NCBI GenBank assembly: GCA_965203135.1
Contig: CBDBBO010000003.1
Coordinates: forward strand, 266-64,265
Reading direction: 5' to 3'
From: Dehalococcoidia bacterium
GTDB lineage: Bacteria; Chloroflexota; Dehalococcoidia; Lucifugimonadales; CATOSD01
DNA: 64,000 nt
Both the position numbers and the translations under genes were made by a program. Numbering within the stretch: the first letter of the stretch is position 1; each line of letters starts with the position of its first letter. The notes under the pieces are model-generated. The model made no database searches. It saw nothing but the letters and a program-made list of their open reading frames with translations, and was not told the origin of the DNA. Shown piece by piece: positions 21,732 to 30,248 of the stretch.

Positions 21732-22619
21732 ATGGCCGATCCCATACTTGTAGATGCCCACATGCACATAACCGAGTCCAGGGAGAAGGGCCGGGTCCGA
21801 AAGCAGACCTACGAGATCTGGGAGTACGGCGAGAAGTCCGACGTGAAGTACAGCGCCTACGACGGGATCGTCGAGGACGCGCTGGACGCCATGAACGAGG
21901 CCGGATTCTCCAAGGCCGTGGTGGTGAACCTGTTCGGCTCGGGCAGTCCGGCCTTCGAGAGGGGCCCGGCTCTTGCCGACGAGCTGAGGGCATTCAACAG
22001 GTGGGGATGCGACACCGCGGCCCCTCACGACAGCCTCGTCCCGTACATCAACGTCGACCCTCACATCTTTTCGGGCGATGAAATGTCTGCCCACATTCTC
22101 GACATGGTGGAGAATCACGGCGCCGGAGGCGTGAAGCTGCATCCGGTGCTCCAGCGCTTCGAGCTGGGCGACCCGAGGATGACTCCGGCCTACCGAACGT
22201 GCATCGAGCTTGGGATACCCGTCCTGTCCCACTCAGGCCCGGCCAGGGACGGAAGCGCTTTCGGCACGCCAAAGGCGTTCGCTCCGCTGCTGGAGAACTT
22301 CCCGGACCTGACAGTGGTCATCGCACATCTCGGCGGTGGAGCCTGGACGGAGGCGCTGGAAGTTGCGCGGGTGTTCCCGCACGCCGCTTTCGATTGCTGC
22401 GAGATCATGGAATGGCTGGGAGGCTCCAGCGCCCCGACCTATGAGCAGCTAGGCAGGCTCATAAAGGACATAGGGCCCGAGCGGGTGGTCATGGGGTCGG
22501 ACTTCCCCTGGTACGACCTCGACCGCAGCGTCGAGATCGTAATGGGGCTGCCGCACCTGGCGCGCGAGGAAAAGGAGGCTATGCTGGGAGAAAACGCGAT
22601 CAGGATCATGGGCCTGTAG
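21732..22619 (+). CDS. Amidohydrolase-2 (TIM-barrel metal hydrolase/decarboxylase) family protein
   Basis: GGGAGGAG RBS. ILVDAHMHI, GVKLHP, VLSHSG, IAHLGGG, MGSDFPW. The ORF-track start 21585 lies inside the IS5 inverted repeat and was rejected. Confidence 0.75.
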   Translation: MADPILVDAHMHITESREKGRVRKQTYEIWEYGEKSDVKYSAYDGIVEDALDAMNEAGFSKAVVVNLFGSGSPAFERGPALADELRAFNRWGCDTAAPHDSLVPYINVDPHIFSGDEMSAHILDMVENHGAGGVKLHPVLQRFELGDPRMTPAYRTCIELGIPVLSHSGPARDGSAFGTPKAFAPLLENFPDLTVVIAHLGGGAWTEALEVARVFPHAAFDCCEIMEWLGGSSAPTYEQLGRLIKDIGPERVVMGSDFPWYDLDRSVEIVMGLPHLAREEKEAMLGENAIRIMGL

Positions 22620-22636
22620 GCGCTGAGGAGGATGCC

Positions 22637-23395
22637 ATGCCCGGAAAACTCGACGGCAAGGTGAGCATCGTAACCGGCGGCGGCTCCGGCATAGGCCGCG
22701 GCACGGCCCTGCTGTTCGCCGCTGAAGCCTCTAAGGTCGTCGTCGCCGACGTCGATGACCGGGGCGGCGAGGAGACCGTCGTGCTCATCGGCGAATCGGG
22801 CGGGGACGCCCTGTTCGTCCGCACCGACGTCTCGCAATCACCGCAGGTGCGCGACATGGTGCAGAAGACCATCGAACACTACGGAAGGCTCGACCTGCTC
22901 ATCAACGTCGCTGGCCGGCAGGCGGAGGTTCCTCACCTCATCGACGTTACCGAGGAGGAGTGGGACCTGGTCATGGACGTGAACCTGAAGGGAATCTTCC
23001 TGGCGTGCAAGTACGCTGTTCCCCACATGCTGGATCAGGGCGGCGGCGCCATAGTGAACGTCGCCTCGTCGGTGGTGCTGAGAGGGTCCTCGTTCTCGCT
23101 TCCCTACTCCGTCAGCAAGGCGGGCGTGGTGCAGCTCACCAAGACCGTCAGCAGCCAGTACGCATCCCGCGGCATCCGCTCAAACTGCGTGGTTCCCGGG
23201 CTTGTCGACACGCCGGGCTCGCAGGGTGTGGAGGGCGCGGCGGGGGTGTTCGACGAGGCGGTGGCCAGGATACCCGTGGGCCGGGCCGGTGTGCCTGAGG
23301 ACGTCGCCAGGCTCATTCTCTATCTCGCTTCGGATGATGCCGCCTACGTGAGCGGATCCGCTTACGTCATCGACGGCGGCAGGAACGTGCAATAG
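22637..23395 (+). CDS. Short-chain dehydrogenase/reductase (SDR)
   Basis: TGGGSGIGRG cofactor motif, NVAG, catalytic YSVSKAG, PGLVDTP. Confidence 0.9.
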   Translation: MPGKLDGKVSIVTGGGSGIGRGTALLFAAEASKVVVADVDDRGGEETVVLIGESGGDALFVRTDVSQSPQVRDMVQKTIEHYGRLDLLINVAGRQAEVPHLIDVTEEEWDLVMDVNLKGIFLACKYAVPHMLDQGGGAIVNVASSVVLRGSSFSLPYSVSKAGVVQLTKTVSSQYASRGIRSNCVVPGLVDTPGSQGVEGAAGVFDEAVARIPVGRAGVPEDVARLILYLASDDAAYVSGSAYVIDGGRNVQ

Positions 23396-23467
23396 TGGAG
23401 TAAGGTATACTGTACCTGTGTATCCATAACGGCGTGGAAACTACACACCTCGATAAGGCTGGGAGGG

Positions 23468-27976: not shown

Positions 27977-28047
27977 GGCGTACCCTTCACTTCGCAGATC
28001 CGGCGACCACAGCAGCTAGCGGAGAGCCAGAGCGCCTTACCTCGACG

Positions 28048-29103
28048 CTAGGCATCTGAGTCCTCGTTATCCTCTGGGTGAGGATAGAACTGGGCGCAGT
28101 AGTACCGGAAGGGCATTATCTCGCCGTCGGAACGGCAGAGGCGCGGGCGGGGGCGGTACTTCTTGCGCCGCCAGATGACCACGTCCTGGAGGACGTCGTG
28201 GCGTTGCTGTAGCGACATGAACCTGTTCATAAGCGGGGCGCGCAGTTTGGGCGGCAGAATGCCCAGTCCCACCAGCAACCGCTTGGGCTTGCGCATCTCC
28301 CGCACCTGCGAGACCAGAGTCACGTCTATCAGCGTACCGTCTACGGGCGTCGCCAGCACCCACAGGCGCAAGTCCATTCCGATGGAGCGCTCATTTATCT
28401 CGACGAACGAGTAACCCAGGCCGCAGATGCTGGCCTTCGCGTCGATGTCGAAGGTGAGAGTGGCTATCTTGGCGATGCGCCGAACGCTCTTGAACTGGAA
28501 GTCGCTCTTGAGCAGGGGGCCGTCCACCGACACACGTTGTGTGCGGCCAACGTCGCCGTAGCCGTGCACGTAGCGCAGGTGGCCCAGGTCCACGGAATTC
28601 TCCGAAGTCTCCTGCGGATGACCGGGAAAGCGCAGAGTCTGGAACTGGAGGCCGCTCCAGCCAGCCTGGTCCGGCAACCCCGAGGGCAGGCCCCATTGCG
28701 GCTCGCGCCCTCCGATGCCCCACCAGGCGAAGACCATGCCATGGACTTCTTGGGTCTCATAGACGCGCAGCCTGGCGGTCTTGGGCGGCTCGGCGTAGGG
28801 AGTGGCGACGCACTGGCCGGTAGTATCGAATTCGAAGCCGTGAAAGGGGCAGACCAGCCGACCGGCACACACTTGCCCGCCCGCGTCGGCGCCCAGATAG
28901 GCTCCCAGGTGAGGGCAAAAGCCCTCGGAGACGCAGACTCGGCCCTCATCGTCGCACCAGACGATGATGTCTTCGCCCATCCAGGTTCTTTCGATGAGTT
29001 TGGCCTTCAGCACCTCCTCACGAGTGGCGACGAAGTACCAGCCCTCGGGGAAAGGGTCGAGCGTCTGTGTGTAAACTACCGGCCTGCGTTGTGTCGAAGT
29101 CAA
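28048..29103 (-). CDS. Rieske [2Fe-2S] non-haem-iron oxygenase, KshA/PaO-like
   Basis: CPHLGAYLG..CPFHGFEF Rieske ligands. Mononuclear iron motif NSVDLGHLRYVH (N-x2-D-x2-H-x4-H). TTG start at 29103 preceded by GAAGAGG. The ORF-track start 29328 overlaps the upstream gene and was not used. Confidence 0.75.
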   Translation of the reverse strand: MTSTQRRPVVYTQTLDPFPEGWYFVATREEVLKAKLIERTWMGEDIIVWCDDEGRVCVSEGFCPHLGAYLGADAGGQVCAGRLVCPFHGFEFDTTGQCVATPYAEPPKTARLRVYETQEVHGMVFAWWGIGGREPQWGLPSGLPDQAGWSGLQFQTLRFPGHPQETSENSVDLGHLRYVHGYGDVGRTQRVSVDGPLLKSDFQFKSVRRIAKIATLTFDIDAKASICGLGYSFVEINERSIGMDLRLWVLATPVDGTLIDVTLVSQVREMRKPKRLLVGLGILPPKLRAPLMNRFMSLQQRHDVLQDVVIWRRKKYRPRPRLCRSDGEIMPFRYYCAQFYPHPEDNEDSDA

Positions 29104-29150
29104 TCTAGCCTCTTCTGTGTCGTCTGGCCCGCCGCTGAAACTAGGCGCAC

Positions 29151-30248
29151 CTACACCATGCGGGACGGTCTGACGGGACCAGCGAATGCGTCCTGTGGGA
29201 TGAGGCTTTCCCGTTCGACGGAGAAACGCATGTCGATGCCTTCGGTGGCGACCCTGCCCATTGACGTGAAGCGTCTGCTTTCTCCGTGCAGGCCGCTGCG
29301 GTTGCCGCCGGAGTGAGTGCGGACCCAACCGGGTGGGAGAATCTGTTCGCCTTTCCAGTTCCCGCCGGTAGCCACCAGCAGCCCGTATCGCGCCAGGTCC
29401 TTTGCGCTAATTACCACCCAGCCGGGGCCGCTCCTGACGGGGTTGCCGTCAATCTCGTAAGGTGGGTCTAGGTAGGTGTATGAGTCGGGGATGGTGGGGT
29501 AAAAGTACTTCTGGTCCTTCACGTCGCCGCCGATGTACCAGTCCCAGCTATCGGCAGCGATGCCGATCTTGCTCATGATCTTCTCGTCCAGCACGTCCTT
29601 GAGGTCTCTGCCCCAGAGGTGAGTGAGTGCCTGGGCCACTCGCCAGGTGCCGGCGCTGCTGTAGTGGCGGCGAGTGCCTGGCTCGATGTGCGAGTATATG
29701 TCGTAGAACGGATCGCCGGTCCAGTTTGCCCATGCCGGGACACCGGGGATGTCGTCCGTTCTGGTGTTGCGCTCCATCCAGTCTATTCCCAGTTCTATGG
29801 CAAAGCCGCCGTAGTGACCCGCTCCCCACTTGATGCCGACGAGGTGCCGCCAGGTGAGCGTCTTGTGGTAGCCCTGGTCGAGATGCTTGTGGGGATGTGA
29901 GAGCTGCCCTTCGCCGGTCCAGGTCTCGGAAATCAGGTCGTCGGCCTGCACCATGCCTTCCTGCACAGCGAGGCCAAGCAAGGCATACGTGAACGCCTTG
30001 CCGGTGGATGCGGTCTGGAACTTGTAGTCGCCGTCGCCCCAGGTGTGCACGAGGTAGCCGCCACGGGTGATGACGGTACCGAACTTGTCGCCGGTGTGGT
30101 CCTCACCTCCGAAGTCCGCCCCCCTGGCGTCGATGGAGGACAGGAAGGCGTCGAACCTCTCGCGGTCGAGGCCCGCCTCTTCGGGAGTAATCTGAATCCA
30201 CTCGTCTTCCGGGAAAGTCACCCAGTCCGGGATGTCGGGGGTTGGCAT
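29151..30248 (-). CDS. Serine hydrolase (beta-lactamase/PBP4-like fold)
   Basis: SxxK motif ASTGKAFTYALLG. Size and layout are typical of class-C-like esterases. Confidence 0.65.
   Translation of the reverse strand: MPTPDIPDWVTFPEDEWIQITPEEAGLDRERFDAFLSSIDARGADFGGEDHTGDKFGTVITRGGYLVHTWGDGDYKFQTASTGKAFTYALLGLAVQEGMVQADDLISETWTGEGQLSHPHKHLDQGYHKTLTWRHLVGIKWGAGHYGGFAIELGIDWMERNTRTDDIPGVPAWANWTGDPFYDIYSHIEPGTRRHYSSAGTWRVAQALTHLWGRDLKDVLDEKIMSKIGIAADSWDWYIGGDVKDQKYFYPTIPDSYTYLDPPYEIDGNPVRSGPGWVVISAKDLARYGLLVATGGNWKGEQILPPGWVRTHSGGNRSGLHGESRRFTSMGRVATEGIDMRFSVERESLIPQDAFAGPVRPSRMV

Follow-up and report, generated by a model that had tools for sequence, protein, structure and literature searches.

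A GPP34-P450 fusion, a Rieske oxygenase and an RND pump in a Dehalococcoidia genome: a probable module for the handling of exogenous sterols

Gene content of the locus

The stretch of DNA considered here (the window, 64,000 nucleotides of GenBank assembly GCA_965203135.1, contig CBDBBO010000003.1) belongs to a Dehalococcoidia bacterium whose genome of 3.49 Mb, with 64% G+C, is assembled in three contigs (C1 to C3), the window being part of the 334-kb contig C3. Its subject is a gene in which a GPP34 domain is fused to a cytochrome P450, and which stands beside genes for a resistance-nodulation-division (RND) pump and for a Rieske oxygenase resembling KshA. These three genes are probably the minimal copy of a horizontally spread module of sponge symbionts, which would handle exogenous sterols by oxidation and transport.

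The original prediction described six adjacent genes in two convergent blocks, and this layout holds: all six are found at their positions with Pfam matches to the expected families (Table 1), and both blocks are tightly packed (intergenic gaps of 17, 72, 15, 71 and 47 bp). It also saw no reductase partner in the window and, indeed, there is not a single match to PF00175, PF00111 or PF13459 on the whole of C3. The longest open reading frame (ORF) for the Rieske protein (28048-29328) overlaps the serine hydrolase gene and is inflated; since all homologues have a length of about 350 amino acids (aa), one of them with full identity along 351 aa, the shorter frame listed in Table 1 is the real gene.

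Table 1. Features of the window (positions are those of the 64,000-nucleotide stretch)
Feature	Position	Strand	Evidence and remarks
Fused kinase-regulator, 788 aa	16533-18899		GAF, PAS, HisKA, HATPase, receiver and OmpR-type DNA-binding domains; soluble, single protein
Insertion sequence (IS) element, rve integrase type	19375-20658		Pfam
IS5-type transposase, two ORFs	20812-21590	-	DUF4096 and DDE_Tnp_1 (Pfam); left edge of the cluster
Amidohydro_2 metal-dependent hydrolase/decarboxylase-type gene	21732-22619	+	PF04909, 99 bits
Classical short-chain dehydrogenase/reductase (SDR)	22637-23395	+	adh_short_C2, 211 bits; 72 bp upstream of the P450 gene
GPP34-P450 fusion (GPP34_L), 675 aa	23468-25495	+	Pfam
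GPP34/GOLPH3-like domain, residues 15-201	~23510-24070	+	PF05719, 104.8 bits
P450 domain, residues 247-645	~24206-25402	+	PF00067, 111.4 bits
P450/RND junction, 18 bp	25501-25518		Locus L006 has 1,099 bp here, with a sterol C-24 methyltransferase gene
MMPL/HAE3-type RND transporter, 821 aa	25511-27976	-	PF03176, 146 bits; PF12349, 53 bits; sterol-sensing-domain-like bundle of transmembrane (TM) segments
KshA-like Rieske non-heme iron oxygenase, 351 aa	28048-29103	-	Rieske and KshA_C domains; TTG start at 29103
Beta-lactamase-fold serine hydrolase	29151-30248	-	PF00144, 44 bits; heads the minus-strand block
Promoter-like site (extended -10)	30308-30336	-	Consensus scan; upstream of the hydrolase-Rieske-RND block
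SBP_bac_5 solute-binding gene	right of cluster		Pfam

Conservation of a three-gene core

Relatives of the fusion protein were collected with one genome per species, which yielded 187 of them, and the best 80 loci (designated L005, L006 and so on) were taken with 10-kb flanks. Their neighbourhoods were scored in two ways, by tblastn with the window proteins and by all-against-all clustering of ORFs, and the picture was the same: the conserved core is a trio made up of the GPP34-P450 fusion, the HAE3/MMPL-type RND pump and the KshA-like Rieske oxygenase. Near the fusion gene, a KshA-like Rieske gene is found in 67 loci, an MMPL-type pump in 64, a sterol methyltransferase of about 345 aa also in 64, and an oxidoreductase of the amine-oxidase type that would use flavin adenine dinucleotide (FAD) in 46; rarer companions are a pair of LppX/LprG-type lipoprotein and major facilitator superfamily (MFS) genes (14 loci), an AHSA1/SRPBCC protein (11 loci) and tandem pairs of ERG4/ERG24 sterol reductases (9 loci). 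The trio proteins of these loci are about 65-75% identical to those of the window, and the loci come from metagenome-assembled genomes (MAGs) of at least six phyla (Chloroflexota, Actinomycetota, Latescibacterota, Gemmatimonadota, Binatota and Verrucomicrobiota), many apparently belonging to sponge microbiome collections. The gene order of the window, with the P450 gene on the plus strand and the adjacent MMPL and Rieske genes on the minus strand (23468-29103), recurs in other loci. Conservation of the six-gene neighbourhood, which had been put forward as a check, was therefore found for one half of it: the trio is present in most of the 80 loci, whereas the other three genes accompany it in four close relatives only (L005, L006, L007 and L075).

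In Latescibacterota and Opitutales an AcrB pump with a HlyD-type adaptor stands in place of the MMPL pump, in the co-oriented order HlyD-AcrB-P450-methyltransferase. Because a different pump can take this position, transport appears to be part of the function. One further Dehalococcoidia locus (L069) carries two GPP34-P450 genes in tandem (10001-12025 and 12819-14837), whose products are 67% and 64% identical to the window protein.

Features of the core proteins

The original prediction recognised a lipid-binding-type domain in front of the P450; an N-terminal domain is present, and Pfam identifies it specifically as GPP34/GOLPH3. The protein joins GPP34 at its N-terminus to a P450 domain at its C-terminus within about 675 aa, which is the architecture of GPP34_L, and more than 2,000 homologues were found, those listed being about 675 aa long and 65-91% identical. 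Neither a signal peptide nor a TM segment is predicted in it. An AlphaFold2 model based on an alignment of 28 sequences has a mean pLDDT of 54.9 and a pTM of 0.39, and only its GPP34 domain is moderately confident. This domain aligns with Vps74/GOLPH3 (E ~1e-4), and its W37, which falls on the pocket tryptophan of these proteins, is invariant in the alignment. At the position of Vps74 R97 (GOLPH3 R90) the window protein has an alanine in a variable column, and the alignment does not extend to the second basic pair; the tryptophan and the basic residues are those that we take to form the pocket for phosphatidylinositol 4-phosphate (PI4P). A short single-domain GPP34 gene, also with an alanine at the R97-aligned position, is located elsewhere in the genome (C1:601631-602311, 155 bits), with no lipid genes evident in its neighbourhood.

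The P450 domain, which has just one other P450 for company in the genome, retains the heme cysteine loop (YGLGTHRCLG) and the ExxR motif. Its invariant I-helix segment ASVYLGD aligns to AGQHTS of CYP51, with Tyr-Leu at the His-Thr positions and without the acid-Thr pair. CYP51 enzymes are its nearest solved relatives in a search of the PDB, at only about 70 bits; the AGxHTS signature is lacking and no CYP51 model is among the NCBIfam matches, so that the protein does not qualify as a CYP51.

The Rieske protein and the pump were placed by their PDB and NCBIfam scores. The former (homologues 67-79% identical) matches PF00355 with 65.7 bits and PF19298 (KshA_C) with 76.2 bits, and possesses both the 2Fe-2S ligands (CPHLG...CPFHG) and the mononuclear iron motif ENSVDLGHLRYVH (E-x3-D-x2-H-x4-H). 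Its best PDB match is KshA (76 bits), while aromatic ring-hydroxylating dioxygenases match the Rieske domain only (E ~1e-5). The possibility had been raised that the oxygenases might fall into aromatic-degradation clades; the nearest solved relatives of the Rieske protein and the P450 are KshA and CYP51 instead. The SdmA model NF052579 also reaches no further than the Rieske domain (33.8 bits, cut-off 600 bits). No other KshA_C gene exists in the genome. As for electron donors, the genome has two FNR-like ORFs, both on C2 (283 and 338 aa), which are too short to include Fer2 and coincide with none of the four Fer2 matches.

The pump is predicted to cross the membrane about 12 times and to have two large loops. 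HAE3 (TIGR00921) is its best NCBIfam match, at 225.3 bits against a cut-off of 351.9, and its remote PDB matches are MmpL4/5, HpnN, Patched and NPC1. An HpnN-like exporter had been predicted, but the protein falls short of the cut-offs for HpnN (TIGR03480, 111 against 751.85 bits; NF052374, 70.4 against 1100 bits), for BstA (30.6 against 1400 bits) and for MmpL3 (38.7 against 1400 bits), and that label was given up.

Loss of the methyltransferase gene

The window is collinear with its closest relative, L006, at about 90% nucleotide identity (blastn) on both sides of the P450/RND junction. In relatives the usual place of the methyltransferase gene is between those for P450 and pump, and its product (examined in L005 and L012) combines Methyltransf_11 with Sterol_MT_C, the signature of sterol C-24 methyltransferases. 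The 18-bp junction is the site at which this gene was lost in the lineage of the window. No orthologue is encoded anywhere in the genome (the highest score, 30 bits, belongs to a generic methyltransferase), nor are there homologues of the FAD oxidoreductase or of ERG4/ERG24; no clear microhomology is seen when the junction is aligned. The methyltransferase is missing from 16 of the 80 loci, and its presence and absence require at least five changes on the P450 tree. Since three sister loci keep the gene, the loss in the window is an independent one.

The trio has stayed intact. All three ORFs are complete, and their ratios of nonsynonymous to synonymous divergence (dN/dS) against L006 are 0.14 (P450), 0.13 (pump) and 0.09 (Rieske); the trio is under purifying selection and still functional in this genome. 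As these ratios are low in spite of the loss, the trio seems to serve a function that is independent of side-chain methylation, and the lineage can be regarded as a natural experiment in which the methyltransferase is gone and the genes for oxidation and transport are kept.

The pump itself has not always been inherited together with its surroundings. The allele of L006 is that of the window (91% identical), whereas the pumps of L005 (13097-15589; synonymous divergence, dS, of 1.29) and L007 are 69% identical to the window's, between flanking genes that are 87-96% identical (dS 0.2-0.4). This suggests replacement of the allele through recombination inside the module.

Source of the substrate and spread of the module

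The locus does not depend on a squalene-hopene cyclase of the bacterium's own, since a cyclase is absent from most genomes that bear the module. A search of the genome for cyclases, which had been suggested as a check, finds a cyclase of the squalene-hopene type only, on contig C1 (TIGR01507, 826 bits); with the oxidosqualene-cyclase model it scores 270 bits, far under the cut-off of 851, and no PF08491 match that would indicate a squalene epoxidase is found in the genome. Among ten other module-bearing genomes, the five that were scored for oxidosqualene cyclase all remain under its cut-off. Any triterpene cyclase is absent from seven of the 11 module-bearing genomes (the window's included), namely those of Opitutales, Binatia, Latescibacterota, two Acidimicrobiia and two others; of the ten others, three Dehalococcoidia have one. 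De novo synthesis of sterols was considered as a candidate and rejected for want of both an oxidosqualene cyclase and a squalene epoxidase. Sterol methyltransferases and reductases thus occur in genomes that are unable to cyclise squalene and, therefore, the likeliest substrate is a sterol from outside, which we infer to be probably that of the host.

Across the six phyla named above, the fusion protein keeps 65-70% identity. Its P450 tree is star-like, with Acidimicrobiia and Binatia inside clades of Chloroflexota and a sequence from Gemmatimonadota inside Latescibacterota. In a sample of the window's own class the gene is present in 62 of 401 genomes but in only 13 of 223 genera. This distribution agrees with horizontal transfer among bacteria that share a habitat. 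Some relatives bear the bin labels RHO and COS, which we take to denote sponge MAG sets. In the class sample, split or stop-containing copies of GPP34-P450 were seen in G255, G141, G331, G212, G190, G085 and G070, and because several relatives carry such broken copies, the gene appears to be decaying in some lineages. Other bin labels (APA_bin, SB0661_bin) resemble those of sponge MAGs named in the Fig. 5 legend of PMC11706023.

Proposed function

The fusion is already published as a marker of symbiosis. It has been described as exclusive to sponge symbionts of many phyla and as expressed in Aplysina (Ferreira et al. 2025, Microbiome, PMC11706023), and sterol methyltransferases of sponge symbionts have been shown to be active (Brown et al. 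2023, Nat Commun, PMC10070321). The sterol-type neighbourhood of the fusion is unmentioned in the publications found. More specifically, (i) the text of PMC11706023 is silent on sterol, lipid, methyltransferase, MMPL and RND, and its analysis of flanking genes covers the short form; (ii) a 2025 preprint of the Brown group does not discuss gene context; (iii) on P450, Rieske and MMPL proteins and on the taxa represented by our loci, the supplements of Brown et al. offer only tables of sdmA/sdmB; and (iv) a literature search returned no relevant publication that joins GPP34, sponge and sterol.

We think it probable that the window holds a minimal copy of a module with which sponge symbionts oxidise and transport sterols that they do not make. 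The case for sterols rests on the Sterol_MT_C methyltransferase and the ERG4/ERG24 genes of related loci, on KshA and CYP51 as nearest relatives of the oxygenases, and on the sterol-sensing and Patched matches of the pump. The original prediction spoke of a locus of the sterol/steroid, hopanoid or mycobacterial lipid type; its sterol side is borne out by the links to KshA, CYP51, Sterol_MT_C and ERG4/ERG24, and what falls away is the six-gene unit and HpnN. In the mechanism that we propose, a sterol or sterol-like polycyclic lipid, not self-made and likeliest derived from the sponge, would partition into the cytoplasmic membrane, where the GPP34 domain may anchor the P450 or pass the lipid to it. 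Oxidation, at the ring system or on the side chain, would fall to the P450 and the Rieske oxygenase, and the RND pump would carry the substrate or product across the membrane, with the envelope or the host as its destination. In most relatives the sterol C-24 methyltransferase would also alkylate the side chain, and in some of them ERG4/ERG24-type reductases and the FAD oxidoreductase could supply further steps; with the methyltransferase lost and the reductases and the FAD enzyme absent, oxidation and transport alone would remain in the genome of the window.

Several points weigh against this proposal. The functions of all three core proteins are read from sequence, they resemble KshA, CYP51 and HpnN only remotely (about 50-76 bits), and none of them reaches a curated family cut-off. 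The methyltransferase, which is the plainest sign of sterols, is absent from this genome, so that the sterol reading leans on relatives. Ordinary P450 monooxygenation is not assured with an I-helix that has no acid-alcohol pair, none of the 80 loci has a linked redox partner for either oxygenase, and a KshB-type reductase is not seen in the genome. Finally, RND pumps and oxygenases could equally detoxify secondary metabolites of the host.

The GPP34-P450 fusion is the clearest published gene marker of sponge symbiosis and has so far been read as an effector that blocks the phagosome. The constant company of RND pump, steroid-type Rieske oxygenase and, in most cases, methyltransferase, in genomes that are unable to make sterols, points instead to the handling of host sterols, which bears on (i) the chemical interaction between sponge symbionts and their host and (ii) the makers of the unusual alkylated sterols that serve as the oldest animal biomarkers. 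A more daring version, drawn by analogy and in our view a long shot, is that the trio might convert host sterols to oxidised sterol signals that are exported to the sponge, as a counterpart of the Rieske and P450 hormone pathways of animals that are auxotrophic for sterols; if true, sterol signalling would be the real reason why GPP34-P450 marks sponge symbiosis. On this version, the odd I-helix and the lack of a linked redox partner would fit a P450 that rearranges sterol peroxides or hydroperoxides and does not hydroxylate.

Alternative explanations

The six genes could constitute a single pathway of this lineage, in which one lipid would be handled by all six products. They are tightly co-oriented within their blocks (gaps of 17-72 bp), a promoter-like site precedes the hydrolase gene, the arrangement is collinear in the four close relatives, and all six genes are under purifying selection (the amidohydrolase with a dN/dS of 0.06 against L006). 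However, the three additional genes are missing from the other 76 loci, so the prediction of one six-gene unit was not sustained; the solute-binding gene to the right of the cluster is confined to the same four relatives. In L075 (8018-20917) the flanking genes (amidohydrolase, SDR, hydrolase, solute-binding protein and a UDP-glucose dehydrogenase) share 83-89% identity with those of the window, as does the pump, whereas the P450 and the Rieske protein, at the same position but from a different branch, are only 71% and 68% identical, and the methyltransferase is absent. Because of this discrepancy we take the core and the flanks to have separate histories, and in L075 part of the cassette appears to have been swapped at a fixed site. 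Neither do the additional genes have characterised relatives in the NCBIfam and PDB searches. For the amidohydrolase the PDB search gave no close or informative solved relative (its ORF extends over 21585-22619, and the start at 21732 is plausible with a domain that begins at residue 57 and homology that sets in at about 21604-21721). The SDR clears one NCBIfam model only, that of a generic glucose-1-dehydrogenase subfamily (235 against 215 bits), while its best-scoring model, PRK06172, stays under the cut-off. The serine hydrolase carries an SxxK motif (STGK), is predicted to lack a signal peptide and found no relative in the PDB. A common pathway of all six is thus unlikely; the amidohydrolase, SDR and serine hydrolase are co-oriented genes added in this lineage, probably co-transcribed, and lie outside the shared module.

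A second explanation follows the proposal of Ferreira et al. (2025, PMC11706023) that GPP34_L is a secreted PI4P-binding effector; its GPP34 domain would enter sponge cells, bind phagosomal PI4P and block maturation, and the neighbouring genes would be irrelevant. The homology to GOLPH3/Vps74 with an invariant W37, together with the restriction of an expressed family to sponge symbionts (PMC11706023), speaks for such a role. Against it stand the lack of a signal peptide and of a TM segment, the fusion to a heme enzyme and the place in a pump/Rieske/methyltransferase set conserved across phyla, and PMC11706023 leaves the flanking genes of the long form unreported. The alanine aligned with Vps74 R97 (GOLPH3 R90), in a variable column, may be a further point against it. 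We hold this role to be improbable. Rare fusions of GPP34 to a Rieske protein and to the ATPase of an ATP-binding cassette (ABC) transporter, reported in PMC11706023, would suit a GPP34 domain that works alongside oxygenases and transporters.

Thirdly, the locus could serve steroid catabolism, or the detoxification and efflux of secondary metabolites of the host. KshA is a catabolic enzyme, the combination of P450, Rieske oxygenase and RND pump is a common one in detoxification, and sponges are rich in bioactive compounds. For catabolism one would look for a KshB-type reductase, which is not there; there is a single KshA_C gene, no catabolic genes recur among the 80 neighbourhoods, and the partners that do recur are sterol enzymes of a biosynthetic type. 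We would assign either version only a slight chance. Least probable of all is the tailoring and export of endogenous hopanoids, in which products of the genome's own squalene-hopene cyclase would be moved by an HpnN-like pump. HpnN does appear among the nearest solved relatives and NCBIfam matches of the pump, but its models are missed by a wide margin (111 against 752 and 70 against 1100 bits), the cyclase gene lies on a different contig, seven of the 11 module-bearing genomes do without a cyclase, and relatives carry the sterol-specific partners Sterol_MT_C and ERG4/ERG24. The handling of exogenous sterols therefore remains the explanation that we prefer.

Other features of the window

Contrary to the original prediction, which found no regulator in the window, a fused kinase-regulator is encoded to the left of the cluster (Table 1). 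A link between the two was considered and rejected, as this gene is unlinked to the cluster in close relatives and two IS elements lie in between; a 57%-identical homologue occurs near the module in L066 only. The two elements, of the rve and the IS5 type, are unrelated and sit side by side (19375-21590), and collinearity with L005 and L006 begins to the right of them, at about 21604-21721. Elsewhere, L005 has a copy related to the IS5-type element of the window (81% over 609 bp). The consensus scan for promoters returned four sites where 2.1 are expected, which is weak evidence for the site at 30308-30336. Beyond the cluster, an ORF of 872 aa (32555-35173) contains a complete UDP-glucose/GDP-mannose dehydrogenase in its C-terminal half, preceded by about 440 N-terminal aa without a Pfam match, so its start may be overcalled, and an ORF that exceeds 2,146 aa (57562-63999) extends past the right end of the window.

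Comparison with known systems

The closest known counterpart of the window protein is GPP34_L (PMC11706023), with which it shares the two-domain architecture and the length, its homologues being 65-91% identical. It is presented there as a stand-alone effector with unreported flanks, whereas here it is part of a set with oxygenase, methyltransferase and pump. The sterol clusters of sponge symbionts (PMC10070321) come from what is probably the same habitat, and their methyltransferases have the same Methyltransf_11 and Sterol_MT_C domains as those of the window's relatives; these clusters include an oxidosqualene cyclase, a squalene monooxygenase, CYP51, ERG24 and sdmA/sdmB (44-52% identity to references), none of which is in the module of the window.

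With KshA/KshB of actinobacterial steroid catabolism the Rieske protein has the cluster ligands, the iron motif and the KshA_C domain in common, but it is a remote relative (76 bits), without a KshB partner and without a catabolic gene context. Similarly, the pump shares with HpnN, BstA and the MmpL proteins the RND architecture of 12 TM segments, two large outer loops, HAE3/MMPL signatures and a sterol-sensing-like bundle, yet it lies far under the equivalog cut-offs of HpnN, BstA and MmpL3 and does not stand beside genes for hopanoid or sterol synthesis. Animals that are auxotrophic for sterols modify them with a Rieske desaturase (DAF-36/Neverland), P450s (DAF-9 and the Halloween enzymes) and a methyltransferase (STRM-1). 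These are the same enzyme classes acting on sterols that the organism cannot make, and the likeness may be seen as an analogy only, the animal pathways having neither pump nor GPP34 domain, unlike the module. By their defining features, the locus stands outside the families of KshA/KshB, SdmA, CYP51, HpnN and the de novo sterol clusters, as a conserved combination of GPP34-P450, Rieske oxygenase and RND pump.

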